Source: Isurus oxyrinchus
Taxonomy: Eukaryota
DNA: 64,000 nt
Assembly: GCA_026770705.1 (NCBI GenBank)
Contig: JANJGN010000031.1
Location: 1,550,001 to 1,614,000 of the forward strand
Direction: 5' to 3'
In this document: positions 3-51,645 of the stretch, in pieces
How the letters are laid out: every line of letters starts with the position of its first letter
Numbering within the stretch: the stretch's first letter is position 1
Notes under the pieces: generated by a model
What the model was told of the DNA's origin: nothing
What the model saw: the letters and a program-made list of their open reading frames with translations, nothing else
Database searches by the model: none
Program-made: the position numbers and the translations under genes

Positions 3-41
3 GTGTTTTGTTGAGCTGCTCCATCTCTCTGAGTCACTGTG
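3..41 (-). other. 23-RSS of V type A copy 1
   Basis: CACAGTG + 23-nt spacer ACTCAGAGAGATGGAGCAGCTCA + variant nonamer ACAAAACAC. Confidence 0.92.
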
Positions 42-563
42 AAGACTCCGGGGGCAGTAATACACGGCCGAGTTATCCGCCCGCAGGCTGGGGGACTCCA
101 GCATGAACTCGGAGTCTCTTGGTCTCTGGGCGGTGAAACCGTCCACCGGCCCCTCTGGATTTACAATACTGGTGCCTCTGGAGTAAAATAGAAACTGCAG
201 CTCCTTCCCTGGGTCCTGTCTGTACCAGAACATGTCAGGGTTACTGCTCCCTTCCACAATGCACTCCAGTTCCATTTCATCCCCGGGAAATCCGGAGACA
301 GCAGCGGGAGTCTGGCGGATAGTCTGTGACTTCACACATGGGAAGGAAAGGAGAGCGGAAGCCGTCAGTAAAGAGGGTAAATTGGGTGTTGGGGAAACAA
401 AGGAAGGAAAGAGACAAACGTAGAGAAATAGAAAGAAAGACCAGAAGGAGAGAGAGCAAGGGAAGGTCAGAAAGTGGAGCGGAAAGCTGGATGCTGAATA
501 GGAATTGTTGTCTGGAAAGTTCCTTACAGTGAAACATGATTAACGGAGCCAGCAACAGTACAT
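42..563 (-). pseudogene. TRBV: TCR beta V segment, type A copy 1 (pseudogene); leader 528-563, V exon 42-337
   Basis: V domain QTIRQTP...LEC...WYRQ...YYCPRS. The leader is 36 nt instead of 37, giving ATG TAC TGT TGC TGG CTC CGT TAA (frameshift and stop). The splice acceptor reads CAT instead of CAG (339-338). CAWS is changed to CPRS. Confidence 0.9.
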
Positions 564-636
564 CTTCCACCTCAGGTTCCCTTTGAACCAATCTTTATTC
601 CTGGTAAGAAAACACTGCAAATACAATGCTCCTCCT

Positions 637-785
637 GGCTTGGCCTAAATAGCCAAGTGGTTATGATACTGGGCTTGTAACCCCAAGATCAAGCATTCAA
701 AATCTCACAATGGCAAAACTATGAAACAATGTAACTTCACCTGAATAGGAACAGATGGAAACGAGTTTGTACTCGAAAGAGTTAT
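637..785 (+). mobile_element. Short tRNA-derived SINE inserted in the type A V promoter
   Basis: A-box TAGCCAAGTGG, anticodon-like arm with TGT, and B-box-like TTCAAAATC (GTTCAAATC in copies 2 and 3). Flanked by a 12-bp TSD AATGCTCCTCCT (625-636 / 786-797, one mismatch here). Absent from the paralogous type C promoter. Confidence 0.75.
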
Positions 786-959
786 AATGTTCCTCCTCCT
801 CCTCGCTCTGATTGGTAGCCCAGCCCCTCCCATTCAGACTGACAGCCCCGCCTTTTCCAATTTCAGCCCCGCCCCTCACTCCCTGCTTGGATTATGTAGA
901 GCTGCGGGCAACAGGAAGTTGCACATAGGAGGTGCGGGGGGGGCGCTGTTAGTGGACAG

Positions 960-1545: not shown

Positions 1546-3275
1546 ATAATGCATTAATTTTGGCACTAAATTTCTACTCAGTTAAAGGGCTTGTTAGTTC
1601 AGATAAGATTTTCCATTAGGATGAATGTTTTAATATTTTTGTAATTCCAAAACATAAATTCTTTACAAAGAAATGAAAGCAATGTTTTCCTCCTTTTACT
1701 GTCCTTTGGAAAAATTGTTGAGCCCACCACTTACTGAAAGGAAGCAGGGGATGTTTCTGTCTACCGACCAATCAGATGGTGTGATGAGAGTGATTTTCCC
1801 TTTGCCCTCTCACCCATTGCAATGTAGTTAAAATCAAGAACTTTGAAAGAATGAAGACAATCAAACTTTCAGTCCGGCTTTGCTTTTGAATTCAACTACA
1901 AGAAAAAAGCTTGTCTGTCGGGTTACCCCTTCCTACCTCTAGATTCTGATCATTCCCTTCTGTGGTTATTTTTGTTTCTCTGTTGTGCACATTCTGTGCC
2001 CCCTCACCCTCGCCGTACCAGCTTCTATTGTCAGCATTTTGAAAAATTTTCTCCTAAGCTGCTAATACACCATCTCACAAACTGTTCCCTCCCTGCTTCC
2101 TCTTTGCTTTGCAATCAGAACGTACAGTATTGTTTCTAACTCTTCAACTTCTAATTCCCCAGGCACATGAAGCTATGCAACTACTGTAATTTAACCAACT
2201 GTTGATGATCTTTGAAACCTATCATTTATTATTAACTGCAGTGTGCTCCACACTCTACAATCTTCAAACTAAACTGCGATTGGTGAAATATGGCTGTTTA
2301 TCACTGAGAAATACTGCTTGACAATTTCTGTAACCTGAAGGGGTACAGAACCAATCCCCCTCCAGTAGGTTGTGTGCAAGTTGGTCATCTTATATACTGA
2401 ATGGTGATGCACTAATCTATGAGTTCCTGCAACTGTAAATATCAGTTTTTCAAACCTTTTTTAAGCCAAAGCTTCAGCTATCCAACTTCCCCTCTCCATA
2501 TGAAATAAAACTGAAAATATTGGACCTGCAACAGTGAAAGCAAGGATCGTAAAAATCACAAGTAAAAAACCAGTGGGGAAAACGAAAGTATTACAGAGCC
2601 AAGAAAATTAAAGCATCGAAAATATATGAATAATCATACAGGGGATTGAAAAGACCCATTTAGAATAGGATAAAACAGAATAAAAGAGAAGCTGAGATTC
2701 AGCAGGTAAAGAGAGGTTACCTAACAGCTAAAGGATGGAACCACTTAAAGATATTTCAAAGGGAATAGTTCCTCACTGATACCTTTTGGGTCTCCCTTCC
2801 TTTTCCTTTTGATGCATTTTATAAGTGGGTTTTCCTACAGTACCAGCTCCAATCGAAACAGCAACCTCCTTGTTTTCTATTGAATTGTTGACTGACTCGT
2901 TTATAGATTTCCAGCATTTTCTGTTTTTATTTCTAATTTCCAGCGTTTCTGCATTTCCCTTTTGATTTATGACTAATCAATCTCTGATAGCATTGTACAC
3001 AGGGACAGAACTTTCCCAAATTTGCTCTAAATGCGGTAGCGGGTGGGTAAAACGTTGTTTTACCCACTGGCCACAATGGCAGCTTTACGCAGTATCGTCC
3101 CAAACCCGCCTCCTTATTTATGCACTCCTGGGAAACACGTTGTTTCCATGGCGAGCAGATTCTCATTCACCGCCCGCCATCACCCCGCTGCTGCATCACC
3201 CCGGGTGCCATATTTAAAGTCCAGCCACAAGCACACATCCCAGTGCTTCCAGCTCACCACTGCTGCTCCAAAGAC

Positions 3276-4900
3276 ATGGCCCTGAAAGTGAAAATGACTG
3301 CAGCCCCCAGGTTCAGCGACACGCCCCTTGATCACCTTTTGGATGCCATGGAGGCTCGTCGTGATGTCCTCTACACCCGCTGTGGCCGCAGGATGGGCAG
3401 CAACCGCACTAATCCAGCGAGGTGGCAGCGGTGGTCAGTGCCAACACCCTGCAAAACAGCACAGCCACCCACTGCCGCAAGAGGATGAATGATCTCCTCC
3501 ATCCCACCAGGGTAAGTCACCCTTCTCATCGCTCCCAACTCACACACTCACAAACCCATCACACACCCATAGGGCCCTCACTCACTGGCGATTGAAGGGA
3601 CATCACAATTCACTCTCTCACTCTCACCATCATTGTCCTCATCTCATCCATGGGACCACTCATCACCCACACATGCCAGGTACCTTTATCATCTGGCCCA
3701 GCAGGCATCCTGCTTACACTCTCTCCATCTCAATGCATGCAGGACAAGCTGGCACACAACGAAAAGGAGAGGTCACAGACTGGTGGAGGAATGTCTGAAA
3801 TCAAGGTCCTCACAGACTTTGAAAACAGCCATCCAGCTGGTCGGTGAGGATCTGGACTGTTCCTGTGCTGATGGTGAGGTCGGCGCGGCTCTACCAAGTG
3901 AGGATCCAGCAGTGCAACATCCATCAGACAACCATGCTCTGAGTGATGTGTCCTGCTTCACAGGCCCCTGCCATGCACTAATTATCACCCCTTGCTTCCA
4001 CAGGCACATCTGCCAAATGACTGACAGAGTCCATGACCCAGGGCCTCCAATCAAACCCCAAAAAAACCTCTGAAGAGGAATCTGAAGGCACCCTCCCTAA
4101 AGCCCTGTCACAGCGCTCACCTACACACTCCACCAGTGCAGAGACACACACCTCAGTGGGACCTAGCTGTAGAGTAGCCTTGGGACCACAATCTGGTGAG
4201 CACGTTGCACTGTCTAATCCACAGCAGGCAGAGGCAGGGACTCGGAGGACTGCTGGAGGCCAGAACCTTGCTGAGCCCGAGTCAGATGATGAGTCTCTGG
4301 ACTTAGTCATGTCACAGTTGCTGGAGCTGCAAAGGCAAGCTCGAAAACATCAGGAAGGGATGTCCACTGCACTCCTCAGATTGCAAGGCACGATGGAGGA
4401 GTCTGTCCGCCTTCACTCTGGACCAAGGTCAACACTGGCAGGATGGCAGCTGCCATGGAGACCTTGGTCCAGATGTCACTCCTGCACTGCTGCACTGATG
4501 TCATAGTTGGCCTCCTAAAGTGTGTACATGAGCGGGGTGCTGTGCAACATGATCTCACTCCAGCTGCCCTTTCTCCTCAAGGAGTCAGCCAGGGACCCTC
4601 TGGCACCCATAGGGAGGAGGCCTATCCACCAGCTGACTCTGGGAGTGACTGATCCATCCAACTCCCCTCTTACTGTGACCTCAGCAGCTTCAGCTCCACA
4701 GGCCGAGGAGGGAGCCATTGCCACACAGCAGGACCCCAAAAGCAGGCCGGGGCCCTCCAAGTCTCAGCCCTCCAGAGCACGCCCACCAAAAGTCACCACA
4801 GACAGGGCACAGCAGTCAGCAGTCTGCCACCACCTCCACTGTGGATGTCCAGGGAGCATCAAGATGTAGTGGCAGGGTTAAGACAGTTAAGGAGAACTAG
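3276..4900 (+). pseudogene. Harbinger Myb/SANT-like DNA-binding protein gene, spliced and degenerate (exons ~3276-3511, 3743-3897, 4004-4900)
   Basis: APRFSDTPLDHLLDAMEARRDVLY...CRKRMNDL, then GT..AG introns, then DKLAHNEKERSQTGGG. TATTTAAA at 3211 and AATAAA at 4955. Several frameshifts. Confidence 0.72.
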
Positions 4901-5639
4901 TTGCACAGCCTGGGCACAAGTGTTAATCACTCATATATAATGTTCACTTTTGTCAATAAACTCCCAAGAATGTCTCCCAGCCTATGGCTCCTTGCTCTGA
5001 TGAGCAGGGTTCATGTCACTCAGATGTGAAATCTTTCTGCACAAGGTAAAGGCAGGTGTCTCAGTCCAGGGCCTCTTCCCTGTGTCTGTGCAGCCTTCAG
5101 ACCAAAGTGATTGTCTAGCCTCACACTCCCTGGAAACATTACTGATGCCTGCACCTCAGTGGTACTGGTCATTGCTGCCAGAATGTAGTAAGCAGGCACC
5201 ACAGAGTTCTTTCATTCTCTCTGTGTGCTCTCAGCACCTTTAAGGTGCGGCTGGCCCCCATCTCTTCAATACTTGTGACCACTGATGCTGTGCTCCAGCT
5301 CCTGAAGGCCTCAGGTGCTGAGGGTGGACAAAGGATCATATGTTTCTAAAGTTTCATTGCTGCACCTCTATGATATGATCCTGATAACATAACGTAAGCG
5401 AGCTGCCCTCAGCCAGACAGGAGTCAGACATTCTCAGAGGCTATGTGATGATTTATGGAGTGTCTTCACTGTGTGCTGTAATCATCGTCCTGCAACTGAG
5501 TGACTATTAGGGCCTCCACTGCATCTCCATGACAGGAGCATTATCACAGAGGGTATTGGCATTGCCAATACATTACATAATGTCGTCAAACATTCACAAA
5601 TGCGATGTGAGGAACTATGGGGTCTCTCCAATGCATATC

Positions 5640-6361
5640 ATCATCATCCTCCACAAATCTATCAGCTATGAGAGCCTCATCCCCGTTGTTATTTGTCTCT
5701 GAGGACCCCCTCACCCTCATCCCTGTCGGTGTCCTCCTCATCCAAGGAGACCTCCAGCTCCTCCATCTCCTCCTCTCAATCTCGTATCACCTTTGAAGCA
5801 CCAGGTTATAAAGGACGCAGCAGACGATGATGATGCATGACACCCTCTGTGGACTGTATTGCAGGGCTCCACCAGCACTGGAACCTCACTTTCAGCATCC
5901 CAATGGTCTGCTCCACCAAGTTGCGAGCAGCTACATGAGCCTCATTACAGTGTCGCTCTGCTGCAGTCTGAGGCCGCCACACGGGTGTCATCAGCCACGG
6001 CCTCTGTGAGCAGCCCTTGTCCCCGAGCAGCCATCCCTGCAGCCTCTGTGGACCCTGGAAGACTCCAGGGATCTGTGACCGACTGAGGGTGTAGGAAACT
6101 GTGCGCACACCTGCAGGATGCATTTCTGGTCGTCGCACACTAGCTGCACATTCAGCCAATGGAACCCCCTGCAGTTGATGTAGTTCACCTTGTGTTGTGA
6201 TGGAGACCTGAGCACCACATGAGTGCAGTCGATCGCACCCTACACCCGTGGGAAACCTGAGATCTGGGTGAATCCAATTGTTCATGCATCCTGGCTGTCT
6301 TAGTCCTGGGAAAAATGCACAAAGTTGTGTTGCCCTTGCAAAGCTGGCATCCATGACCTCA
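5640..6361 (-). pseudogene. Harbinger (HARBI1-family) DDE transposase, C-terminal part, degenerate
   Basis: GAIDCTHV, GFHWLNVQLVCD, GWLLGDKG..PWLMTP and NEAH..ARNLVEQTIGMLKVRF motifs spread over shifted frames. Confidence 0.85.
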
Positions 6362-7404
6362 ATGCATGAACCAAAGTGCTAAATTCTTTGCCGGCAATAA
6401 TTCACAGATTATTTCATAAACACCCGAAAAGCGACCTTGAGTCTGAGAGAAGTGAGTTAACGGTTTTCAGCAGATTCTGAAACCACTGTCAGGGGGCAGG
6501 TGTCCTGCTGCTGAATACACCTTGTACAGTGTGAACCATCAGAGGCGTTTAAAGGTTCCGAAATGAATTATTTCCTAGTTGTGTGGGATATTCTCTTTAG
6601 AGATGAGATGGCTGAGCTAAAGTTTGCCGAAATGGGGAAAGGGTGAGGGTTTCCTATGGATTCTGTTTGTGCGGAGAGATTGGAGTAGCCGGGATTCTCC
6701 TCCACAGTGGAGATTAGATAACAGCATTCAGATCCATGAAGGTTTTTCTTAGAGTGAATAGGGAGAAGCTGTATCCAGTGATTCGGAACCGATGAACGAT
6801 GTTTTAAGATGACTAGGGGCGGTAATTAGAATTGTTTCCTTCAGTCAGTGATATCATTGACCCTGTCTCACTTGCTCAGTTTGAACATACATGACAATCA
6901 GGAAGCGGAAGGGGCTCAGTGTCAACCCTTGGTGCTATCCAGCTTTGACTTTGAAACTTTCATTCTTCCCAAACCTGCTTCTTATTCTTGTCTGGCACTA
7001 TTTGAACACGTCCTGTAATAATCGTAAGCACTTGACAGAGTCTCCGCAAATTCTAATCACCAGGTCTTCCTCCTAGATACCCAGTCATAAGGCATCTTTA
7101 GATCAGTGACTACATGAGGACTCGAAACGTCAACTCTTTTCTTCTCCGCCGATGCTGCCAGACCTGTTGAGTTTTATCAGCCTAGTGAACCGTCTCTCAA
7201 CTCTTTCCAATGCAAGTATATCCCTGCTTAATTAAAGTGACCAAAATGGAACCCATTGCCGTATGTGTGGCCTCACCAATTCCCTGTGCAGTTGTATCAA
7301 GACTTCTCTACTTTCATACTTAAACATTAGAACTCTACTTTATAAGCACAAACTTGTTTCCAAATTGCATCATGGTCACACATATTCCCTATCCCTGGGC
7401 CTTC

Positions 7405-7760
7405 CCTCAGCATCTACAACCCTCCCTATCTATGTAACCACCTCCAGCCTCTACAATCCTCCATATCTCTGTAATCTCTACCAGCCCCTAAAACCCTTCC
7501 TATCTATGTAATCACCTCCAGCCCCGACAACTCTCCTCATCACTGTAATCTCCTCCAGACTCTAAACCCTCCCTATCTCTTTAATCTCCTCCTGCCCCCA
7601 CAACACTCCCTGTCTCTGTAACCTCGTCCAGCACCTACAACCGCCTATCTGTGTAACCTGCTTTTACAACCACCCCACCACCCTCCCCACCAACTCTGTA
7701 CCCTCCACCAGCCCCTTCAACCCTCCGTATCTATGTAACCAGCTCCCATCTCAAAACCTT
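7405..7760 (+). repeat. ~35-bp degenerate minisatellite (ctatctctgtaacctcctccagcccctacaaccctcc)n
   Basis: About 10 imperfect tandem units; probably part of a LINE-derived sequence. Confidence 0.7.
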
Positions 7761-8139
7761 CCGGGATCTGCAACTGTCCTAATTCTGGTCTCTGGAATAT
7801 TCTCAATTTGAATTTCACTCTTATTGGCAGCTATCAACCACCAAGTAATGGGTTTCCTTCACTACATCTCTTCGCCTCTCTATCTCTCTCCTACTTTAAG
7901 GTACTCCTGAAAACCTACCTCTTAGATCAACTTTTTGGCCATCTACTCTAATATATTCTTACCCCGCTCGGTGTCAAAGCAGGTTTTATAATACCCAGGA
8001 GAAGTGTCTTGGGCTAGTTCACTACATTAAGGATGCCATCTAAATATAACTTTTTCTCCTTGTTGGCATTAAGGTTATAACAGCGTGAATTCACTAAACT
8101 GAAACCGGCGGTTAGAGGCTAAATTATGGGGATGGATTC

Positions 8140-8795
8140 TTTTTAATTTGTTCTCGTGATGTGAACGTGGCAAGACCAAAATTAATTCCGGAGCCTTGAA
8201 AAATCATGGTGAGCCACCTCGTTCAATGGCTGCAGCGAATGATGTGTGGGTACATCCCCGGTTAGGGAGGGTGTCCTAATGTTTACACCCAGCAACAGCA
8301 AAAGAAGACTTAAGTATTTCCCATTCCGAATAGTGTGTGATTTGGAGGGGTATTTGCAGGTGGTGGTGTTCCCATGTCTCTGCTGACCCTCTCTCAGGTA
8401 TAAATGTTGCAGTTTTGGATCACATTGCAAAAGAAACCTTGGCGAATTCTTGCAGTGCATCTTGTAGATGGTACACACTGTGCTACTCAGCATCGGTAGT
8501 GCATGGAGTGAATGTTTCTGGATGTGGTGCCATCAAGCGGACTGCTTTGTCCTGGATAGTGTTTATCTTCGAGTGTTGTGGGAGCTGCACTCATCCAGGC
8601 AAGTGGAGAGTCTTCCATCACACTCCTGACTTGTGCCATGTAGACAGTGAACAAGTCTTGGGGAGTCACGAAGTGAGTTACTTTCCACAGAAAACCCAGC
8701 CTCTGACTTGCCCTTTCAGCCCATTAGTTACGTTTCTGGTCAATGATAATCCCTAGGATGTCGAGGATGGTGCATTCAGCGAAGGCAATGCCATT
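8140..8795 (-). mobile_element. Non-LTR retrotransposon (CR1/L2 group) 3' fragment
   Basis: Degenerate RT C-terminus VYMAQVRSVMEDSPLAWMSAAPTTL; the 3' tail resembles that of the SINE at 16200-16540. Confidence 0.65.
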
Positions 8796-9544
8796 GGGAG
8801 TTGTTGGAGTTACATAGACTTGGTCTCTATTCCCTTGAGTATAATACATTTAGTGGTTACTTAATTGAGCATTAGAAAAATGTTAAAATGGGTTTATATA
8901 TTTGAGAAAGGGAAACAGTTCCCTGTGGTAGCTGAATCCAGACAAGATGGCAAAGTATTGAAATTCAGGCTAGGTATATTCAGATGTCCTGTTCTATTCC
9001 TTCGCATGACCAATGTGCTTATTGGAGTTAAGGGTGAAATTGAGCTTTCAAGAGAAACATATGGAACAAAGACAGTTAGATACAGTTAAGACATATTTGA
9101 ACCATGGTCTAATTGAATGGCTCTACTGTTTCTGTGTAAAAGGCTCGAGAGACGTTTGAACGGCCTCTTCCTGCAGCTATATAACCGGTCTGTTTAGGGG
9201 CAATTGACCTCCTCCTGCTGAAAAGTCGAATGAGCTAAATGGGATTCCGTTGTGCCACTTCAAACAATTTCAGTCGTCTGTTTCGTGGCCCTAGAGAGTC
9301 CTCTACTGTATTTGTGGAGAAATGCAACACAGCTTCAGTATATCGATTGAGAACAAATTCACTCCTCTCTATCGTTCTTCCTTTGTTTATTACATTCTCT
9401 CTTTCCTTCTTTTCTTTCGATATTCCCGATGTACCTTTTGTCTCTTCTTCTTGTCAAAAACACATTCATTCTGCAAAATGAAATCAAGTTTTTTTGGGGA
9501 CAGCGCATGATTTCCTCATTCACAGTTGTTTCCTGCCGCCTTTG

Positions 9545-9583
9545 GGCTTTTGTTGAGCTGCTCCATTTCTGTGAGTCACTGTG
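9545..9583 (-). other. 23-RSS of V type B copy 1
   Basis: CACAGTG-23 nt-ACAAAAGCC. Confidence 0.92.
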
Positions 9584-10087
9584 AAGACTCCAGGCGCAGT
9601 AATACACGGCCGAGTGATCCGCCTGCAGGTTGGGGGTCTCCAGTTTGAATTCAGGGTCACTCGGTCTCCGGGCAGTGAAACCGTCCACCGGGTCCCTCGG
9701 AACTAACTTGGTTGATAGCAGCTGAGTAAAACATTATTTGGGGCTCTCTCCCCGGGTATTGTCTGTACCAGTTAATAGCAGGGTTAGTGCTGCCCTCCAC
9801 ATCGCAATTCAGTTCCACTGCCTGCCCGGGAAATTTGGAGACAGCGGCGGGAGTCTGGCGGATCGTCTGCGAGTTCACGTCTGGAGAAGAGGCAGGAAGA
9901 GGAGGAGGTCAGAACCCGAGAAATTCTGGAGATGGAGAAGGAAAGTGGGAAAGAAAGAAAGGAAGGAAGGGGGGAGGAGAGGAATAATGAAGGAAAGGAA
10001 ATATAAAGGATTGTTGTTTAAACGGTTATTGCATAAAAAACATCACTTACATTGAAATAAGATCAGCAATCTCAAAACCACGTACAT
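9584..10087 (-). pseudogene. TRBV: TCR beta V segment, type B copy 1 (pseudogene); leader 10051-10087, V exon 9584-9880
   Basis: Intact leader MYVVLRLLILFQ with GT/AG sites. The V exon is 297 nt instead of 296: a +1 frameshift at ~9690-9692 (GGA CCC GGT vs GGG CCG GTG) puts YYCAWS out of frame. Confidence 0.9.
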
Positions 10088-11039
10088 GTTGACCGGTAAA
10101 ATTTTCCTATAATAGGGAAATGAGCTGAACCAAGGGCGTTGGGCATTGTTGGGAACCGACCTGCTTGTTTAAAATCATTGATGAAAACATGAAGAGCTTA
10201 AGGAAGTGAGTTAGGTGTAAAAAGCCAAGCCCCGCCCCCTCTGATTGAAAGCCCCGCCCTCATTATTGGGTGGAACAGGACGTTTCAAAGCGGACAGAGT
10301 GGGAAAAGAAGCGGCAGATGCATTTTGATGTGACCCATTCTCAGGACATCCAGGGTCGACCTAAGAAAGAGGGAGCAGGATACTTTCTAACTGGCGGAAG
10401 CGAAGGACTCTGGAGCTGCAAAGGAATTTAGTTGTCTCGCTGAACAAGGAAGAATCATACAGTCCAATCGAATTTTTACTTGAAGGGAACTAGAAGGCGA
10501 AACGGAGGAAGTTCTGGCTCATTGTAAGGAACTCAGAACAAACCCCTCCGACAATCCTTCTTTCCATTCGGGGCAGTCACATCAGGAAGGATGAATTGGA
10601 CCTGGAGGGTGTTCAACGCTGATGCAACAGAATTATACCTTGGTTTAAGGGGTTAAATCATGAGGACAGGTTGCATAATCTTGTCTGCCTGACCTTCAGC
10701 ATGAAAGACCCACGGGAACATTTGAGGTTCTTTCATGAGTTTCAGAAGCAGTTATCACAGGCTATAGGTACCTTGTTTTCTAGATTCCCACACCAGGAAA
10801 AATAGTATAACTTCACAGTTAGAGACATGTCTTTCAGGGTGATGTGAGGAAATATTTCCTCTGACAAATGGTTGTAGAAATCTGGAACTGTCTCCCAGCA
10901 AAAGATTAATGGGGGGGGGGGGGGGGGAGGGGGGGGTGCGTTAACCTTACATTTCAAAACTGAGATTGATGGACTTTTTGGGGGACAGTGTGCTGAGAAA
11001 TATGGACTGGAGGTGGACAGTTGGAGGTAAAATGTAGTC

Positions 11040-11345
11040 CTGACGCGGTCATGGTAACCATTAACATTAACACTCCCTTTTTCCTTTAGCTCATCTTTGT
11101 CAATCTCTCATTTGCCTCCACCTATCCCTGGCTTTGTATCCAGATCGACCTGCCCACCCCCCTTAAACAGTATAAATTTCAACATATTTCTACTTCTCTT
11201 CAACTCTGAATAAGGGTCATACGGACTCAAAGCGTTAACACCTTCTCTCTCCACAGATGCTGCTAGGCCTGCTGTGTTCTTTCAACATTTTCTGGGTTTT
11301 TGTTTTCAGATTTCTGGCATCTGCACTATTTTGCTTTTATTTCAG
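11040..11345 (+). mobile_element. Older Penelope-like pLTR / 3' fragment with a decayed hammerhead motif
   Basis: ctctgaataagggtcatacggactcaaagcgttaac...cagatgctgctaggcctgctg...tttctggcatctgca, homologous to the PLE terminus. Confidence 0.6.
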
Positions 11346-12284
11346 TCATTTCCCTCGCCCTTTCTCTCTCTCTCTTTTTTCTGTTGTTCTTCCTTCTCTA
11401 ACCTTCCCTCTCCCTTTCTATCCTTATTTCCCTCTTTCCTTTCTTTTTTTCACATTACTTAGTTGAATCTATTTATTTCTCCCTCATGTATTTGTTTAGT
11501 TTCTCCTCAAGCACATCCCTGCTGCAACCACATTCTCACCACCCACTGGATTTATTTCTCCTGGATTCCCAGTTAATTGTATTATTGATGACGTCTTCTA
11601 ATCGTTTTGATCTTCCTAGAAAGTGGAAACATGTTTGCGTTATCTTTCCTATCAAACAACTTTCACAATTTCAAATACCTCTATCATGAAAATATCTCAA
11701 TCTTCTTGCTCGAATAGAAATGCATATTCCAATTCTTTGCTTTTAACTATAGTCTCTCAGTTCTGGTAACCTCCTCCTTAATTTTCCTTTTCACTTTCTA
11801 CAGTCCTTCACAATATAATCAGTCACTTTCATTGTAGTCTTTTCTCTTATTGTCAAAAACCATATTAGCTCTGCAAGAAGAACAAAACACAACAGGTCCA
11901 GCCACCGCGCAGTGTTACCATTCGCAGCTGTTTCCTGCCGCCTTTGCATGAATTAGTTTGTTCCAAACTCCTGATTCGTTTTTGTAACTTATTCTCATCT
12001 TCCCCACCTCAATTCTAATAAATCCCTTCATCATTTCAATAAAACTTCTTGACAACTGCTCTCAACATCTATTTTCCAACAAAAACGAACAAATTCAGAA
12101 TATGCTGATGCTTGACCCACTCATATCTGGGAACTCTCTTCTCCAGTGCTTCCCAAACTAATCACTCACTTTTATTCTCGCTGTTCTCTTATTGTCAAAA
12201 GGTCTTTGCCCCGAGAGAAAAAGAAACAGCGAGTCGAAGCGCCCGGTAATGTTGTTTCGGGCAGCTGTTTCCTGCCGCCTTTGG

Positions 12285-12323
12285 GGTTTTTGTTGAGCTG
12301 CTCCATCTCTCTGAGTCACTGTG
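12285..12323 (-). other. 23-RSS of V type C copy 1 (consensus)
   Basis: CACAGTG-23 nt-ACAAAAACC. Confidence 0.95.
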
Positions 12324-12847
12324 CAGACTCCAGGCGCAGTAATACACGGCCGAGTGATTCCCCCGCAGGCTGGGGGACTCCAGCATGAACTTGGAGCCAC
12401 TCGGTCTCTGGGCCTTGAAACCGTCCACCGGCCCCTCTGAACTCACTTGATTGGTGCCTGCGGAGTAAAACATCAGCTGCGGCTCCCTCCCCGGGTACTG
12501 TCTGTACCAGAACATGTCAGGGTTACTGCTCCCCTCCATAGTGCACTCCAGTTCCACTTCATCCCCGGAATATCTGGAGACAGCAGCGGGAGTCTGGCGG
12601 ATAGTCTGTGAGTTCACATCTGGGGAACAGAAGGAGAGCGGAAGCCGTCAGTAAAGGGGGTTAATTGGGTGTTGGGGAAACAAAGAAAGATAAGAGATAA
12701 ACGTAGAGAAATAGAAAGAAACACCAGAAGGAGAGAGAGCAAGGGAAGGTCAGCAAGTGGAGCGGAAAGCTCGAGGCTGAGCTGGAATTGTTGTCTGGAA
12801 AGTTCCTTACAGTGAAACATGATTAACGGCGGCAGCAACAGATACAT
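12324..12847 (-). CDS. TRBV: TCR beta V segment, type C copy 1, apparently functional (TRBV30-like); leader 12811-12847, V exon 12324-12619
   Basis: Spliced product MYLLLPPLIMFHYVNS-QTIRQTPAAVSRYSGDEVELECTMEGSSNPDMFWYRQ...YYCAWSL. GT/AG sites, open frame, both Cys and the Trp present, consensus RSS. Confidence 0.92.
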
Positions 12848-12924
12848 CTTCCACTTCAGGTTCCCTTTGAACCAATCTTTATCACTGGTAAGAAAACACT
12901 AGAAATAAAATGCTCCTCCTCCTC

Positions 12925-13010
12925 ACTCTGATTGGCAGCCCAACCCCTCCCATTCAGACTAACAGCCCCGCCTTTTCCCGTTTCAGCCCCGCCTCTCTCT
13001 CCCTGATTGG
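12925..13010 (-). promoter_or_regulatory. Putative V promoter: CCAAT boxes and GC boxes upstream of the type C leader
   Basis: gattgg (CCAAT on the minus strand) twice and ccccgcc twice. The same layout occurs upstream of type A (809-880) and a similar one upstream of type B (10229-10270). Confidence 0.45.
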
Positions 13011-13371
13011 ATTATGTGGAGCTGCGGGCAGCAGGAAGGTGCGCACATGGGGGTGTTAGTGGACAGGGCAAAACTCGAGGGGTCACAACTCAGATTCATC
13101 AGGACAATACCGGAGTTTAGAGGGGTAAATTAAGAAGACAGGCTGCAGCAACCTTGCTGCATTCCCTGAATTTAGAATAGTGAGGGGTGACTTAATTCAA
13201 CTGCTCAAACTGGAAAAGCAAAATTGAGGGTATTTGATAGAAACTTTTCTCTCTGCTGGGAGGACTGTCCAAAAGAGTAGAATAACCTTAAAATTAGAGT
13301 TCGGAATGAGAGGTGAGCTTATTGATACATAGAAGATTCGGAGGTTGGCTTGAAAAGGCAGATACTGTTCT

Positions 13372-13513
13372 AGTTCTGTCGAAGGGTCATGAGGACTCGA
13401 AACGTCAACTCTTTTCTTCTCCGCCGATGCTGCCAGACCTGCTGAGTTTTTCCAGGTAATTCTGTCTTTGTTTTGGATTTCCAGCATCCGCAGTTTTCTT
13501 TGTTTTTATTTTT
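13372..13513 (+). mobile_element. 142-bp Penelope-like 3'-terminal mini-insertion containing a hammerhead ribozyme motif
   Basis: Near-identical to the reverse complement of PLE terminus 25345-25480. Perfect 12-bp TSD AGATACTGTTCT (13360-13371 / 13514-13525). The empty site is visible in the type A paralogue (~1254-1265). Confidence 0.88.
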
Positions 13514-14906
13514 AGATACTGTTCTTCATGGGGGAAGAGAGAACTCGGAGCAGTTTCAAAAAAGGGGGTCGCCCGTTTAAGAGGGAGATGAGGAACAATC
13601 TCTTTGAGAGTCGTGAATGTTTGCAATTCTGTACCTCAAAGAGCAGTGGAGGATGGGTCAATGAATATATTCAAGGCTGAGCAAAAGTTTTGAATTATTC
13701 GGGAAATAGGAGATAATGAATGCGGGAAGGCTGCAGACAAAGTGGATAAGGCTGCAATGAGATTTGCCATGATCTCATTGAATGGCAGAGCAGGCTCGTG
13801 GGGCCGAATGGCCTACTCCTGCTCTTCTTTCTTATGTCCTTAAGTTATGACCGGCTAACTTGCTCCTATATCAGTAACTACTTTCGATATTCCCGGGATA
13901 GTTTTCTCTCTGACCAGCCTTGTATTCCCTGGAATGTAGAAGTTCGAAGAGTGAGCAAATCAAGGCGTTAATGATTAAAGGATTTGATAAAGCAGATGGA
14001 GAGAAAGCATTTCCATTGGCTGGGGAAGGGTCCACCACACCGGCGCAGTACAATCAAATTCGACCCAGGCCGGTGGAAATCTTGAGCTCGGTCCCCTGCA
14101 AACAGCTGTGGAGCCTGGGGATCAACTGTAACCTTCAACAGCCGAATTAATCGAAAACAGAAAATGGTGGGAAAACGCAGGTCAGGCAGCATCTGTGGGG
14201 AGAGAAACAGATTTAACGTTTCGAGTCCGTCTAACACTTCCTCAGACCGGAAATGATAGATTTTTGTAATGTTGGGAGAACGAAAATACAGAGCGCAGGC
14301 GGGTAAATGGAGCTAAGAAACAGAGCAGCCACGATTCCATTGAATGAATGAACAGTTTCGCGGTGAGGAATCGCCTCCTCCGCCGACTCGAATGGCCGAA
14401 TGGTCTCCCGATATTCCTGTGTAAAAACTTCATTAAGCTCGATGGGCCTCCTCCTGTTCCTGTCTAATAGTTTCGAGAGGGGGCTGAAATGACCTCCTCC
14501 TTTACGTATGTAACAAATCCAAAGGGACAGAATGGGGACGTGTGTAACAAAACCAAAGGGACTGAACGGGGCTTCCGTATGTTGCCGTGCTGAATGGACG
14601 CCTTCTGTAACTTTGTTTCCTTTAAAACATTGTCCGGCGCTGGTCTCCTTGATGGTCTTTGTCCGTCCCCTGCTGCTCCAAGGAGAACGCGCAGTTAGTG
14701 AATAAATTTCAATTATTTTTGCTGCAGTCACAAACTCCTCATTCTGGTACAATATTGTTAATTAATCTCCAGTGTTTTTACATCCATTCCCTCACTTTCA
14801 TAGTAACCGGTTTCCTCTTATTGCCATAAACACGTTATTCAGCAAACGTGAAACAGGGGGCAACCGCCTGGTTCTCTCATTTACAGCTGTTTCCTGCCGC
14901 CTTTAG

Positions 14907-14945
14907 GGTTGTTGTTGAGCTGCTCCATCTCTCTGAGTCACTGTG
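14907..14945 (-). other. 23-RSS of V type D copy 1
   Basis: CACAGTG-23 nt-ACAACAACC (A-tract of the nonamer broken). Confidence 0.9.
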
Positions 14946-15423
14946 CAGACTCCAGGCGCAGTAATACACGGCCGCGTGATCCACCGGGCGACTCCAACTT
15001 GAACTCCGAGTCTCTCGATCTCCGAGCGGTGAAACCGCCCACCGGCCCCTCTGGATTTACAATATTGGTGCCTCAGGAGTCAAACATCAGCTGCAGCTCT
15101 TTCCCCGGGTCCTGTCTGTACCAGAACATGACACCGCTACTGGCTCCATCCGCAGTGCAATTCAATTCCACTCTCTCTCCAAGAAATTTGGAAATAGTTC
15201 GGGGAATCTGATGGACTGTCGCCGATTTCGCGGCTGAGAAACAAAACGGGAGAGAAGGACGTAAATAAACAGGGACATTCTCATGGAGAAGCAGGGAATG
15301 AAAGAGAAAACATGAGAGAAGGATGGAAGAAAATAAATGATAAACGATGGATGTTGACAAAAATTGTCGCTTGAAAAATCACTTACACTGAATTAAGATC
15401 ATGACACTCAGCAACAGAAACAT
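14946..15423 (-). pseudogene. TRBV: TCR beta V segment, type D copy 1 (pseudogene); leader 15387-15423, V exon 14946-15233
   Basis: Leader MFLLLSVMILIQ is intact. In-frame TGA at 15073-15075 and an 8-nt deletion in FR3 (exon is 288 nt). Confidence 0.9.
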
Positions 15424-16199
15424 CTTTCACTTTAAGTTTGTCTTGTCATTGGGAAAGGAACGAAAACTGGAGAGGCCAGGCTTGATGGGAGTGAAACCGC
15501 CTCCTGTCAAATCAATGAAGGGAAGATGGAGGGCCCAGGGATGTGTGCATATAGCCCTCCCTCCATGGTGGAAAGACACGCCTCTCCCTCAATAATTGGC
15601 TGTAAGTGGAGCTGATAAGAACAGCGGGTTTCAAAGGCCAGAGGGCGCGAGTGGGCAAAGCAGTCGCAGATGCAGTGGGTAAGTCAGAGGTCACAATTAT
15701 CGGCCTAAGCGGGGAGAGCATAATATGTTCTAACTGGCGAGAAGCGAAGAACTCTAGAGCTGCAAAGGAACTTAGTTATCCAGCATGAAAAATCTCAGAT
15801 AGACAGAAAGAAAAATGAGTCACCAAGGTGAATGGAATGCTAGCCTTTACTCAAGCGGAGCTGGAGTGCAGCATGGAGCCAGTTACACTCCAGTTGTTGA
15901 GAGCGTCGGGCGGACTCCATCGCGAGATTTATTTCAGTTCTGGCCAGCTCACCTCAGGAGGGATGTATTAGTCTGAGAGGGGGCGGGGGACAAAGTGGAT
16001 TGACCAGATTAATATTGGGCTCAAAGCGTTAAATCACGTGGACGGTTTCTCTGTATTCCCTTGAGTTTACAAGATTGAGGAATGTATTTGCGAGCTCCTT
16101 TTTGGACATCTTAGAAAGGTATCCCGCGTTAATAAATAGGTGCTATTTCATCTAGTGTTCTTCTAGAACAATGAGATGCAGTATGTTGCTTAGTGCTGG

Positions 16200-16540
16200 T
16201 GTTGGCATCATGGTGTTGTTACTGGTCTCGTATTTCAGAGAGCCACGATTATTCTCTGGGGGCCCGGGTTCAGGTCCCACCACGGCAGGTGGCGAAATTT
16301 GAATCCAATCAAAATCTGAAATTGAAAGTCTGATGACTATGAACCGATTGTCGTAAAAACCCATCTGGTTCCCTTTAGGGAAGAGAATGTGCCGTCCTTA
16401 CCCTGGTCTGGTCTACATGTGACTCCACACCCACACCCGCAGCAATGTGGTTCACTCTGAACGAGGGCAATGAGGGATGGCCAATAAATGCTGGCCTAGC
16501 CAGCGACGCCCACATCCCACGAACGAACCATTAAAAATAA
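16200..16540 (+). mobile_element. tRNA-derived SINE with LINE-like 3' tail
   Basis: B-box-like GGTTCAGGTCC, body (cgtaaaaacccatctggttc..tacatgtgactcca), tail gggatggccaataaatgctggcctagccagcgacgcccacatccc, A-rich end. Confidence 0.65.
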
Positions 16541-17500: not shown

Positions 17501-17539
17501 GGTTTTTGTTGAGCTGCTCCATCTCTCTGAGTCACTGTG
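17501..17539 (-). other. 23-RSS of V type E copy 1 (consensus)
   Basis: CACAGTG-23 nt-ACAAAAACC. Confidence 0.95.
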
Positions 17540-25480: not shown

Positions 25481-25530
25481 TGATTTCGAGTCCAGGAAAG
25501 AGTTGAAATATAAGCTGGTTTAAGGTGTGT

Positions 25531-38001: not shown

Positions 38002-38040
38002 GGCTTTTGTTGAGCTGCTCCATTTCTGTGAGTCACTGTG
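38002..38040 (-). other. 23-RSS of V type B copy 2
   Basis: CACAGTG-23 nt-ACAAAAGCC. Confidence 0.92.
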
Positions 38041-38544
38041 AAGACTCCAGGCGCAGTAATACACGGCCGAGTGATCCGCCTGCAGGTTGGGGGTCTCCAG
38101 TTTGAATTCAGGGTCACTCGGTCTCCGGGCAGTGAAACCGTCCACCGGGTCCCTCGGAACTAACTTGGTTGATAGCAGCTGAGTAAAACATTATTTGGGG
38201 CTCTCTCCCCGGGTATTGTCTGTACCAGTTAATAGCAGGGTTAGTGCTGCCCTCCACATCGCAATTCAGTTCCACTGCCTGCCCGGGAAATTTGGAGACA
38301 GCGGCGGGAGTCTGGCGGATCGTCTGCGAGTTCACGTCTGGAGAAGAGGCAGGAAGAGGAGGAGGTCAGAACCGGAGAAATTCTGGAGATGGAGAAGGAA
38401 AGTGGGAAAGAAAGGAAGGAAGGAAGGGGGGAGGAGAGGAATAATGAAGGAAAGGAAATATAAAGGATTGTTGTTTAAACGGTTATTGCATAAAAAACAT
38501 CACTTACATTGAAATAAGATCAGCAATCTCAAAACCACGTACAT
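38041..38544 (-). pseudogene. TRBV: TCR beta V segment, type B copy 2 (pseudogene); leader 38508-38544, V exon 38041-38337
   Basis: Same +1 frameshift as copy 1. Confidence 0.9.
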
Positions 38545-40731: not shown

Positions 40732-40770
40732 GGTTTTTGTTGAGCTGCTCCATCTCTCTGAGTCACTGTG
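40732..40770 (-). other. 23-RSS of V type C copy 2 (consensus)
   Basis: CACAGTG-23 nt-ACAAAAACC. Confidence 0.95.
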
Positions 40771-41294
40771 AAGACTCCAGGCGCAGTAATACACGGCCGA
40801 GTGATTCCCCCGCAGGCTGGGGGACTCCAGCATGAACTTGGAGCCACTCGGTCTCTGGGCCTTGAAACCGTCCACCCGCCCCTCTGAACTCACGTGATTG
40901 GTGCTTGTGGAGTAAAACATCAGCTGCGGCTCCCTCCCCGGGTACTGTCTGTACCAGAACATGTAAGGGTTACTGCTCGCCTCTACAGTGCACTCCAGTT
41001 CCACTTTATCCCCGGAATATCTGGAGACGGCAGCGGGAGTCTGGCGGATAGTCTGTGAGTTCACATCTGGGGAACAGAAGGAGAGCGGAAGCCGTCAGTA
41101 AAGGGGGTTAATTGGGTGTTGGGGAAACAAAGAAAGATAAGAGATAAACGTAGAGAAATAGAAAGAAACACCAGAAGGAGAGAGAGCAAGGGAAGGTCAG
41201 CAAGTGGAGCGGAAAGCTCGAGGCTGAGCTGGAATTGTTGTCTGGAAAGTTCCTTACAGTGAAACATGATTAACGGCGGCAGCAACAGATACAT
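40771..41294 (-). CDS. TRBV: TCR beta V segment, type C copy 2, apparently functional; leader 41258-41294, V exon 40771-41066
   Basis: Open frame ...DKVELECTVEASSNPYMFWYRQ...FYSTSTNHVSSEGRVDG...YYCAWSL; GT/AG sites; consensus RSS. Confidence 0.92.
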
Positions 41295-43353: not shown

Positions 43354-43392
43354 GGTTGTTGTTGAGCTGCTCCATCTCTCTGAGTCACTGTG
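43354..43392 (-). other. 23-RSS of V type D copy 2
   Basis: CACAGTG-23 nt-ACAACAACC. Confidence 0.9.
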
Positions 43393-43870
43393 CAGACTCC
43401 AGGCGCAGTAATACACGGCCGCGTGATCCACCGGGCGACTCCAACTTGAACTCCGAGTCTCTCGATCTCCGAGCGGTGAAACCGCCCACCGGCCCCTCTG
43501 GATTTACAATATTGGTGCCTCAGGAGTCAAACATCAGCTGCAGCTCTTTCCCCGGGTCCTGTCTGTACCAGAACATGACACCGCTACTGGCTCCATCCGC
43601 AGTGCAATTCAATTCCACTCTCTCTCCAAGAAATTTGGAAATAGTTCGGGGAATCTGATGGACTGTCGCCGATTTCGCGGCTGAGAAACAAAACGGGAGA
43701 GAAGGACGTAAATAAACAGGGACATTCTCATGGAGAAGCAGGGAATGAAAGAGAAAACATGAGAGAAGGATGGAAGAAAAGAAATGATAAACGATGGATG
43801 TTGACAAACATTGTCGCTTGAAAAATCACTTACACTGAATTAAGATCATGACACTCAGCAACAGAAACAT
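43393..43870 (-). pseudogene. TRBV: TCR beta V segment, type D copy 2 (pseudogene); leader 43834-43870, V exon 43393-43680
   Basis: Same TGA (43520-43522) and 8-nt deletion as copy 1. Confidence 0.9.
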
Positions 43871-45949: not shown

Positions 45950-45988
45950 GGTTTTTGTTGAGCTGCTCCATCTCTCTGAGTCACTGTG
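45950..45988 (-). other. 23-RSS of V type E copy 2 (consensus)
   Basis: CACAGTG-23 nt-ACAAAAACC. Confidence 0.95.
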
Positions 45989-46491
45989 CAGACTCCAGGC
46001 GCAGTAATACACGGCCGAGTGATTCCCCCGCAGGCTGGGGGACTCCAGCATGAACTTGGAGTCACTCGGTCTCTGGGCCTTGAAACCGTCCACCGGCCCC
46101 TCTGAATTCACCTGATTGGTGCCTCTGGAGTAAAACATCAGCTGCGGCTCCCTCCCCGGGTACTGTCTGTACCAGAACATGTCAGGGTTATTGCTCCCCT
46201 CCATAGTGCACTCCAGTTCCACTTCATCCCCGCGAAATCTGGAGACGGCAGCGGGAGTCTGGCGGATAGTCTGTGAGTTCACATCTGGGGAAGAGAATGG
46301 AAGGAGGAGGTCAGTAAGTGGAGACAATGGCAGAGATTGGGGGAAAAAGGACAAAAAGAAAAGAAAAATAGCAAAAGACAGAAAGAAAGAGATAGAAATA
46401 AAAATATAAAAGAAGGTTATGAATGAGAGTTACTATTTAAAAGAATTCACTTACGGTGAAACAAGGTCATCAGACCCAGCAACAGATACAT
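45989..46491 (-). CDS. TRBV: TCR beta V segment, type E copy 2, apparently functional; leader 46455-46491, V exon 45989-46284
   Basis: Open frame ...CTMEGSNNPDMFWYRQ...FYSRGTNQV...YYCAWSL; GT/AG sites; consensus RSS. Confidence 0.92.
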
Positions 46492-47771: not shown

Positions 47772-49192
47772 CACACATACGAATTAGGAGCAGGAGTAGG
47801 CCACTCGGCCCCTCTAGCCTGCTCCGCCATTCAATAAAACCATGGCTGATCTAATTTTCACCTCAACTTCAAATTCCTGCCTACTCCTGCTAACCTTTCA
47901 CCTCCTTAATATCAAGAATCTCTCTACTTCCGCCTTAATGATATTCAAAGACTCTCCCTCAAACACCTTTTGCAGAAAAGAATTCCAAACCCTCACAACA
48001 CTCTGAGAGAAAAATATCCTCACCACTGCCTGAAATAGGCAATGCCTAATTTTTAAACAGTGCCCCTTAGTTCGAGATTCTCCCACAAGAAGAAACATCC
48101 TCTCCACAACCACCTTGTCAAGACCCCTAAGGAACTTATATGTTTCAATCAAGTCGCCTCTTCCCTTCTAAACTCCACTGGATACAAGCCTAGTCTGTCC
48201 AACCTTTCCTTATAAGACAACCCGCCCATTCCAGTATTAATCTAGGAAAACTTCTCTGAACCGCTTCCAATGCATTTCCATCCTTCCTTAAATACTGCAC
48301 ACAGTACTGAGATGTGGTCTCACCAATGCCCTAAATAACTGAAGCATAACTTCCCTATCCTTGTTTTCAACTCCCATCACAATAAACAATAACATTCTCT
48401 TAGCTTTCCCAATTACTTGCTGTACCTGCATTCTAACCTTTTGGGATTCAAGCACTTGGGCACCCAGAAATCTCTACATCTCAGAGCTCTGCAATCTCTC
48501 ACCATTTATATAATATGCTTCTTTTTATGTCCTGCCAAAATGGGCAACTTCACATTTTCTCACATTAATACTGTATTTGCCAGGTCTTTACCCACTCATT
48601 TAACTAATCTATATCCGTTTGTAACCTTCTTATGTCCTCTTCACAATTTACTTACCTACCTATCTTTGGATCAACAGCAAATTTAACAACAATATCATCA
48701 TTCCCTTCATGTTAATTATTTGTATAAATTGTGAAGTGTTGAGGCCCCAGCATTGACACCTGTAGCACATCACTCGCCACATCCCAGCAACCAGAAAAAG
48801 ACATATTTATGCCTACTCTCTGTTTCCTGTTAGCTAGTCAATCTGCTATCCATGCCAATATGTAATGTCAAATACCACGTGCTCTTATTGTCAGTAATAA
48901 TCTTTGATGTGGCACTTTATCAAATGCTTTCTGGAACTCTCAATGTAGTACATCCACCAGTTCGCCTTTATTAACAGTACCTTTTCCTGTTTCAAAGAAC
49001 TCCAATGAATTGGTTAAATATCATTTCCCTCTCTCAAAACCATGTTGACTCTGCCTGATGACCTTGAATTTACCTAAGTGTCCTGTTATAGCATCTTTGA
49101 GAACCACTTATGTCATTTTCCCTTTGACAGGTGTAAAGCTCACTGCCCTATAGATTCCTGCTCTCTGTCTCCCTTCCTTTTCAATAAAGCAG
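47772..49192 (-). mobile_element. CR1 LINE fragment, copy 2
   Basis: Duplicate of 19322-20740. Confidence 0.75.
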
Positions 49193-51084
49193 TTATATCA
49201 GGTTTTTTTGCAATCAGAACTAGGCTGTTGAGTTATGATATCAAGAAGCATTTATTCACACAAACAAATCTGTAACACTTGCCCCAATGATCACTGGATG
49301 ACTTGGAGGGTCATTTGAAGATTTAAGACCGAAATTGATAGTTTTTTGTTGGGTAAATGTATGAATGGTGACAAGGCAGATAATTGAAATTAAGATACAG
49401 AACAGCTGGAATCTAATTGAATTGTCTGGCAGGTACGAAAGACTCCCGATTTTTCTTGAGTTCTCTACTTGAAGGCAGGTCCGACCCACAGCCTCCACCA
49501 CAGGTGGGGCTAGGAAGCAGGCCACGAATTCACCCTATCCAGAATGGGGATCAAACCCCGTCGCTGTTAGCACCAAACTGATCCACACTAGCCATCCAGC
49601 TACTTCAACATGTATGTTGGAGCCTGGAATCTCCGACATTCCAAAACATTGCTAACCAGGAATATCTCCCGCTCCCACTGCCTGCCATTTGCGTGTGTTG
49701 GAAGGACTTCTACGTTGACACTCAACCTGTTTGGCTGCATTACGAATGTACCTTCCACGGGCATCGAGCCCTATAGTGGGGGATGAAGATAGAGCTTCTG
49801 ACTCAGAGGCAGGGTCACTACTCGCTGCGCCACAAGACCGCCTCCTGAGCTTCGATTCCTGTTAAACCAACATGTCAGGCACCAGGGTCTGGCAACAGCT
49901 TCGATCGCCTCCTGCTGTCCACTTGGAGAAAGAAACCCGGTGCCTGGAAACACTGGACGTTATATTGTTCTCTTTGTCTCTTTATTTCTTTCTTCATTTG
50001 TCAAAGCCTTTCTCTTACTTGCTGTTTCATTATTTTCTGCGTCACTTCTTTCTTCCTGTCTTTAGTTTCATTTATTTCTCAATTCTGACTCTTACATTTT
50101 TTTAAACCCTGAAACAGGACGATGAGACTGGGCATGGCCTATGACGTGTTTATTACTTTCTCTGCTCCTGTCTACCTATCCTTCTTATTTTCATTTTTTC
50201 ATTCGCCCTTTCCTCGGGTTGGCCACTTTATTTTCTATTTTCCATTTTTCAACCTTTTGTAATGAACAGAGTTTGTAAACACATTCCTGCTGCAGATCGA
50301 AAGCCCATCTCTGTGACTCCCGGTCCGCCCTTTATTTACCCGCCAATAAGAACAGCGTAAAAATGCTGAAAGAAGCAAGAAGCCAGAGTCCATCTCCCCC
50401 TCCCCACGGTTCCCATGTCTGTCCCTACTCAGGGGTCAGTTCACTAACTCCACTGATTAATCCCATAAAGGCATTTTACTGCCCCTCACTGTACCAGCAT
50501 GGACTGTATCACACAGAAACAGACCAGTCAATCCAACAGCCTCGTGCTACTGTTTAAAGAGCGGCTTTAATCCTCTCCTCCCATGCTAACTGATTTCAAC
50601 CCTTCAACACACCCTTCACCATTCATCTGTTTATCCAGCTTCCCCTGAAATCCATCTCTGCTCTTCGCCCCATGGTTCCAGAATCTCGCCTCTCTGGGAA
50701 AATTAGGTTTCTCCTGAAAGCCCGATGGGATATATTGTATTATTAATCATCTCATATTGATGACCCCTAGTTCTGGTCACGCCTGCAAGTGAAAATATCT
50801 CCTGTCCATCTCCTTGTTGAACCGCCTTCCATCATGTTAAATTCCTCTATCAGGATAGCAGCCATTCTGGTGGAAACAGTTCCAGTCTCTTCCGTCTTTC
50901 CCGATAGTAACAGCCGCTCAGTTGCTTGTAAATTTGTCTGTGCACCTTTTCCACAGCTTCTATACCTGACATTCAACCCAACTGATCTCGTGTTCTTCCC
51001 AAAACTGCCTTCACTTTGGTAAAGAGAAACAAGAGGCGGCATCGCCTTGTCTCCTCATTCACAGCTGTTTCCTGCCGCCTTTGG

Positions 51085-51123
51085 GTGTTTTGTTGAGCTG
51101 CTCCATCTCTCTGAGTCACTGTG
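51085..51123 (-). other. 23-RSS of V type A copy 3
   Basis: CACAGTG-23 nt-ACAAAACAC. Confidence 0.92.
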
Positions 51124-51645
51124 AAGACTCCGGGGGCAGTAATACACGGCCGAGTTATCCGCCCGCAGGCTGGGGGACTCCAGCATGAACTCGGAGTCTC
51201 TTGGTCTCTGGGCGGTGAAACCGTCCACCGGCCCCTCTGGATTTACAATACTGGTGCCTCTGGAGTAAAATAGAAACTGCAGCTCCTTCCCTGGGTCCTG
51301 TCTGTACCAGAACATGTCAGGGTTACTGCTCCCTTCCACAATGCACTCCAGTTCCATTTCATCCCCGGGAAATCCGGAGACAGCAGCGGGAGTCTGGCGG
51401 ATAGTCTGTGACTTCACACATGGGAAGGAAAGGAGAGCGGAAGCCGTCAGTAAAGAGGGTAAATTGGGTGTTGGGGAAACAAAGGAAGGAAAGAGACAAA
51501 CGTAGAGAAATAGAAAGAAAGACCAGAAGGAGAGAGAGCAAGGGAAGGTCAGAAAGTGGAGCGGAAAGCTGGATGCTGAATAGGAATTGTTGTCTGGAAA
51601 GTTCCTTACAGTGAAACATGATTAACGGAGCCAGCAACAGTACAT
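51124..51645 (-). pseudogene. TRBV: TCR beta V segment, type A copy 3 (pseudogene); leader 51610-51645, V exon 51124-51419
   Basis: Same lesions as copies 1 and 2. Confidence 0.9.

Follow-up and report, generated by a model that had tools for sequence, protein, structure and literature searches.

The 64,000-nucleotide (nt) stretch of Isurus oxyrinchus DNA analyzed in this study (the window) covers positions 1550001-1614000 of contig JANJGN010000031.1 (C31), in a genome assembly of 4.98 Gb; C31 was examined over 500-1864 kb. We consider it probable, at about 0.82, that the window represents the outermost part of an array of germline variable (V) segments in an elasmobranch T-cell receptor (TCR) beta (TRB) locus, that the array was built by repeated duplication of a cassette of five V of the TRBV30 lineage, and that its intact copies likely join the same-strand diversity-joining-constant (D-J-C) cluster, located 200-250 kb away, by deletional V(D)J recombination. 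It must be noted that the architecture of the surrounding locus is more informative than the window alone.

V segments of the window

Eleven V were found in the window, all of them on the minus strand and within positions 3-51645. All matched one V query with 81-100% nt identity, and all had a 3' recombination signal sequence (RSS) with a CACAGTG heptamer, a 23-nt spacer and a nonamer. This agrees with an earlier reading made from the letters alone (the sequence-only reading), which described 11 V of one family with 23-RSS and whose limits were exact, position 3 being the end of the first RSS and 51645 the ATG of the last leader. A loose 23-RSS pattern identified 14 sites in the window, 11 of them at V ends, vs. 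a mean of 1.3 in 30 shuffles. Five V types followed one another in the order A-B-C-D-E, with a period of 22.6 kb.

The intact copies showed the architecture of V genes, namely a leader exon, an intron and a V exon with Cys23-Trp41-Cys104. Splicing of the leader to the V exon gave an open frame in four of the 11 V (both copies of type C and both of type E). The other seven were broken, a fact missed by the sequence-only reading, and the majority of the window copies are thus pseudogenes. The three type A copies had a 36-nt leader with a stop, an acceptor changed from AG to AT, and CPRS; the two type B copies had a frameshift, and the two of type D a stop and a deletion.

Cassette array

The tandem amplification proposed earlier was confirmed by the cassette repeats. 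The array as a whole consists of 35 V in seven cassettes, with 14 intact V and 21 not intact. Cassettes 3-7 were 98.6-99.6% identical, with pairwise differences of 0.4-1.4%, while the identity of cassettes 1-2 to the remaining ones was 85-94%. The near identity of cassettes 3-7, dead and live V included, fits recent unequal crossing-over, by which both kinds of V would have been copied together.

Of the two window spacers, only one contained a 5.8-kb insertion that, from its motifs, we take to be a Penelope-like retroelement. It had open stretches of 817 and 635 residues, and its copies elsewhere on C31 were 94-98% identical, therefore indicating a young family.

Since cassettes 4, 5, and 7 were 99.4-99.6% identical over 14 kb, which is within the allelic range, part of the copy number might be an assembly artefact, with both haplotypes of a shorter array placed in tandem. 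We consider this improbable, given that cassettes 3-7 all differ pairwise, that cassettes 1-2 are clearly distinct from the rest, that the insertion is private to one spacer and that 650-1714 kb is free of N. Moreover, a multigene block would remain even at half the copy number.

With respect to the variation among copies, 11 of the 21 variable nt columns of the six type C and six type E copies were located in complementarity-determining regions (CDR) 1/2, which comprise 72 of the 576 nt (12.5%; Fisher p 7e-6). In the six copies of pseudogene A, one of five variable columns was in CDR1/2 (p 0.49). Several variants were common to types C and E, which indicates conversion or selection; the CDR1/2-biased differences among intact copies may accordingly have arisen by selection or gene conversion.

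Layout of the TRB locus

On C31, 101 V matches spanned 844-1601 kb (Table 1). The multigene expansion read from the window is special neither to the window nor to the species, since 72 of these 101 matches were closest to TRBV30-lineage seeds and bamboo sharks, catshark and rays also have several such V. The linked TRB D-J-C on which the sequence-only reading depended was found, in the form of two intact clusters facing each other on the same contig. Their D cores were identical, with 12- and 23-RSS, and their C and transmembrane (TM) exons were open; C1 and C2 were 91% identical to each other and had nurse-shark TCR beta C (about 50%) as the best database match. The segments 1160-1220 kb and 1308-1358 kb were collinear and inverted, with 77-86% nt identity including introns, a divergence that points to an old inverted duplication rather than to two haplotypes. 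In addition, one J was located at C31:1182154, 430 nt upstream of D1, with no recognisable RSS and no counterpart in cluster 2; it has FGDGTKLTV coding in common with the J at 1183946.

From the order and strands of the locus it follows that the window V point at D2, at 200-250 kb, and lie 3' of C1 and inverted to it. The sequence-only reading had set a minus-strand D-J-C (ordinary 5' array) against a plus-strand D-J-C on the left with EPHB6 on the right (inverted TRBV30 position). Each outcome holds in part, as both D-J-C were present and no EPHB6 was found in the right-flank frames scanned. The array lies in the ordinary 5' position relative to cluster 2. Seventeen V in line with cluster 2 passed the checks for leader, acceptor, open frame and CAC heptamer, as scored by a script that may miss a few, and 16 of the 17 were of the TRBV30 lineage. 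To judge from these sequences, the TRBV30-like array is likely to supply most V segments of cluster 2.

TRBV30-like V were also found directly 3' of the C genes (five of the seven V at C1 and all four at C2), and all nine were broken. The spacer DNA of the cassettes matched the inverted V blocks at both C genes, with 84% identity over 2.8 kb and on the same strand at C1, and with 80-88% identity in mirrored orientation at C2. These matches indicate that the array and the inverted blocks have a common ancestor. The collinearity with the block adjoining C1, together with the position of the array 3' of C1 on the opposite strand, would also be expected if the array were a functional inverted 3' block like mammalian TRBV30, joining mainly by inversion to cluster 1. 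In the available parts of the corresponding papers, bamboo shark has 15 inverted V past each C (PMC10322711) and long-range inversional joining occurs in mouse Tcrb (PMC10772921). Nevertheless, the intact D-J-C on the same strand is nearer (200-250 vs. 370-420 kb), and no Eph gene accompanies the array: with 31 candidates scored, none of the 14 matches to the Eph ligand-binding exon fell on C31, and in the 260 kb of the right flank no Eph was found in 150 of 216 unique frames, in which the only domains were those of retroelements (five frames). We therefore give this alternative little credit. An Eph exon on another contig (C33) was considered as EPHB6, its best PDB match being EphB3, which was not decisive. 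The above suggests that the TRB-EPHB6 neighbourhood is not conserved in this genome.

Assignment to the TRBV30 lineage

The four intact window V were 46-49% identical to human TRBV30 (P0183; 44-47 of 95 positions, 84-94 bits), and the type C copies (44/95 and 47/95) bear out the "just under half" estimated by eye in the sequence-only reading. Their identity to four mammalian TRBV30-type proteins was 41-49%; for the 13 further mammalian domains compared (TRBV, TRAV and kappa-like) it was 26-38% (at most 62 bits), and for mammalian TRBV other than TRBV30 at most 36%. Multi-domain antibodies dominated the matches in PDB searches by V profile and by the C2 exon. The best single-domain TCR chains were the human beta chains 5xov and Mel5 (about 84 bits), and the next single-domain TCR beta had 57 bits. 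The V sequence of 5xov is that of P0183, which grouped with 100/100 support with proteins named TRBV30 in UniRef. Among the TRBV30 rows of the tree, this UniRef name was borne by marmoset, galago, crocodile, anole, and reedfish proteins, and four rows assigned to the group lack it; the human row appears as hCG1644527. Reedfish and bichir proteins are already named TRBV30 in databases. Mouse Trbv31, formerly called Vbeta14, is the counterpart of TRBV30.

The database proteins nearest to the window V were those of bamboo sharks (57-66%), followed by catshark and rays, which, together with the nurse-shark likeness of the C exons, supports the cartilaginous-fish origin proposed earlier. In an IQ-TREE analysis of 96 rows and 95 columns, the window V, other elasmobranch V ending in CAWS and bony-vertebrate TRBV30 formed a clade of 48 rows (support 99/94). 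Its bony-vertebrate TRBV30-like members were from reedfish, sturgeon, gar, tarpon, newt, frogs, caecilian, lizards, turtles, crocodile and mammals. The remaining shark V families branched outside this clade, and a constraint placing all shark V in one clade was rejected (p-AU 0.004). The TRBV30 affinity noted by the sequence-only reading is thus upheld by both identity and tree.

Convergence or shared slow evolution within a shark-specific radiation of V would be another way to explain the likeness to TRBV30, as the alignment is short and the branching order within the 48-row clade unresolved. We find it very improbable in view of the gap in identity between TRBV30-type and other mammalian V, the chain of intermediates through sturgeon, gar, reedfish, newt, frog, turtle and crocodile, and the rejection of a single all-shark V clade. 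The IMGT subgroup criterion, as quoted in the part available of PMC10464911, is at least 75% nt identity. Membership in the TRBV30 subgroup is very unlikely because the amino-acid identity is under 50%; judging by sequence, the window V are assigned to the TRBV30 lineage and not to the subgroup.

Proposed mechanism

V(D)J joining is governed by the 12/23 rule, according to which the array V would join D2 by deletion, with RAG pairing the 23-RSS of the V with the 12-RSS of D2. The cassette would share its ancestry with the inverted blocks 3' of each C, and the old inverted D-J-C duplication probably set an in-line partner before a formerly inverted V block. Inversional joining of the array V to the plus-strand cluster 1 may also occur, a second partner that the long-range inversion in mouse Tcrb makes possible.

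Several points must be weighed against the interpretation of the array as a TRBV30-lineage V supply of cluster 2. Both the use of the array V and their D-J-C partner are predicted from the germline. No rearranged transcript was seen; the C2 exon matched 19 runs, none of which is recorded as RNA. Repeats dominated the contigs of four runs on window positions 37900-51700; one contig, from a run only guessed to be RNA, covers 46126-46284 and ends at the type E acceptor, and was not counted as evidence. The RSS of the J fit the consensus poorly, in clusters 1 and 2 alike, and family scores were weak for 12 of the 101 V matches. The spacer matches are compatible with copying in either direction between the array and the inverted blocks. 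In the CDR test the units were columns, which are not independent events, and the CDR limits followed IMGT numbering. Regarding the IQ-TREE analysis, it used only 95 columns, its outgroup was non-monophyletic, four intended rows were absent and its rows came from searches seeded with the TRBV30-like family. In a FastTree analysis of all extracted domains, the support of the joint 74-row clade was only 0.78, with 70 of its 74 rows ending in CAWS.

Table 1. Features of the window and of the TRB locus on C31. Positions are those of the window, except those in kb and those in the remarks on clusters 1 and 2, which are on C31.
Feature	Position	Strand	Remarks
TRBV30-like V type A, pseudogene	3..563	-	RSS 3-41, V exon 42-337, leader 528-563 with frameshift and stop, acceptor lost, CPRS
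One cassette period, five V, about 22.6 kb	2710..25344		98.7% identical over 22,690 nt to 31144-53792
TRBV30-like V type B, pseudogene	9545..10087	-	Frameshift in V exon 9584-9880
TRBV30-like V type C, intact	12285..12847	-	RSS 12285-12323, V exon 12324-12619, leader 12811-12847
TRBV30-like V type D, pseudogene	14907..15423	-	Stop and deletion in V exon 14946-15233
TRBV30-like V type E, intact	17501..18042	-	RSS 17501-17539, V exon 17540-17835, leader 18006-18042
TRBV30-like V type A, pseudogene	22635..23195	-	
5.8-kb insertion, presumably Penelope-like	25345..31143	-	Reverse-transcriptase-like frames, GIY-YIG-like end, 2.45-kb tandem partial repeat
TRBV30-like V type B, pseudogene	38002..38544	-	Frameshift
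TRBV30-like V type C, intact	40732..41294	-	V exon 40771-41066, leader 41258-41294
TRBV30-like V type D, pseudogene	43354..43870	-	Stop and deletion
TRBV30-like V type E, intact	45950..46491	-	V exon 45989-46284, leader 46455-46491
TRBV30-like V type A, pseudogene	51085..51645	-	Outermost V of array; next 260 kb without V match
V	844-1163 kb	+ mostly	
Cluster 1: D1, 10 J, C1	1182-1203 kb	+	D 1182586, J 1182-1191 kb, C exon 1200280-1200630, TM exon
7 V 3' of C1	1225-1250 kb	-	
4 V 3' of C2	1290-1307 kb	+	
Cluster 2: C2, 9 J, D2	1327-1348 kb	-	D 1347514, J 1338.8-1347.0 kb, C exon 1329770-1330117, TM exon
18 V	1357-1440 kb	-	
35 V, seven cassettes	1447-1601 kb	-	

Flanking genes and other V and TRB loci

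On the left, where 150 of 268 frames were scanned, the TRB locus adjoins an intronless exon of a C1s-like serine protease (C31:815464-816162, plus strand). A broken, mirrored copy of it (C31:1275933-1276626, minus strand) lies between the TRB clusters, in a mirrored 790-833 kb segment; an intact mirrored exon was looked for to the right of the window and was not found. At 110-245 kb left of the locus there were BLOC1S3 (L136:853-1440, plus), an NKPD1-like KAP NTPase (L139:5801-7522, minus) and a CUB exon (L089:3842-4354, plus). Human BLOC1S3 and NKPD1 are on 19q13, away from TRB.

Two broken TRBC exons on the minus strand were located in the plus-strand V region (C31:912101-912271 and 1099265-1099462), each about 4 kb from a minus-strand V. 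Units of a plus-strand V, a broken minus-strand C and a minus-strand V occur about three times, in an arrangement like that on the left side of the bamboo-shark map, as given in the part available of PMC10322711. These exons were discarded as functional V-D-J-C miniclusters, there being no J or D between C and the upstream V.

A third TRB cluster was found on an unplaced 58.5-kb contig (C2826:19078-35500, minus strand), with one D, at least six J, open C and TM exons and no V. The identity of its C was 53% with C1/C2 and 56% with the nurse-shark C, and the cluster possibly represents a separate old beta isotype. It was rejected as the other haplotype of the C31 locus, as matches of at least 700 nt to C31 were confined to two repeat-like stretches. 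Further V clusters, on C163, C1134, C1481 and C26 (28274524), showed 34-43% identity to the window V and are probably TRA/D or other antigen receptors.

A broader scenario, which we put forward tentatively and think rather unlikely as a whole, is that the lone inverted TRBV30 of mammals would be the relic of a multigene inverted V block from which early jawed vertebrates drew most of their TCR beta repertoire. The shark block would stand between convergent D-J-C clusters, one V joining one of them by deletion or the other by inversion; the near-identical cassettes would diversify CDR1/2 under selection, and the third, 53%-identical C cluster might be a separate beta isotype.

Comparison with known systems

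An inverted-TRBV clade of amniotes and axolotl is already known, as are TRB clusters of opposite orientation in salmonids and bamboo shark. The papers of the 1990s on horned-shark TCR beta reportedly describe a number of V beta families that have counterparts in mammals; if so, the present results would be less novel. In the available parts of Sampson et al. (2025; PMC11754216), the 3'-inverted TRBV of amniotes group in one clade with axolotl TRBV that are not inverted; nurse shark is in the tree, and these parts do not place it in that clade. Our literature search, which had outside its scope the main nurse-shark paper (PMC3222143), the horned-shark papers, part of the supplements of PMC10322711 and those of PMC11754216, found neither an expanded TRBV30-lineage family described for sharks nor a tail-to-tail layout like the present one. 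The portions seen of PMC13433984, PMC10768021, PMC12227049, PMC12529555, PMC5931798, and PMC5278385 contain nothing on shark TRB layout. With a supported tree, our results place V of the TRBV30 lineage in cartilaginous fish, where they form the principal rather than a minor V family in the TRB locus of a shark.

The locus resembles, as far as the available text goes, the TRB of bamboo shark (Giorgetti et al., 2023; PMC10322711), with two opposed D-J-C clusters on one scaffold and V on both strands. In brownbanded bamboo shark many V have an intron start of 38, which would fit the 37-nt leader exon in the window, the comparison being with a table without sequences (PMC10322711). However, the bamboo-shark clusters point apart, with five V between them and the inverted V past each C, whereas here the clusters point towards each other and the large in-line arrays are outside. 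With the salmonid and pike TRB, as described in the part available of PMC10464911, the locus shares paired opposed V-D-J-C loci; a few expanded V subgroups dominate the repertoire in those fish. These loci are head-to-head, with the V in the middle and 8-15% pseudogenes, in contrast to the tail-to-tail layout of this shark, in which 21 of the 35 array V are not intact.

In mammals TRBV30 is single and inverted, according to the portions available of PMC10772921 and PMC10464911. The shark V belong to the same lineage as TRBV30/Trbv31 by identity and tree, have the CAWS end and are also present in inverted orientation 3' of both C genes. In contrast to the mammalian single copy, there are about 72 copies on both strands, 35 of them in the array; the nine copies directly 3' of C are broken and the intact ones are in line with D-J-C; the array is inverted to cluster 1 yet in line with cluster 2; and no Eph gene was found on the contig. 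Why mammals retain one inverted V beta is a question raised in the parts seen of PMC11754216 and PMC10772921. In this regard, the shark locus, in which the same V have an in-line D-J-C and a second, oppositely oriented D-J-C with distinguishable J and C, offers a natural test of deletional vs. inversional joining.

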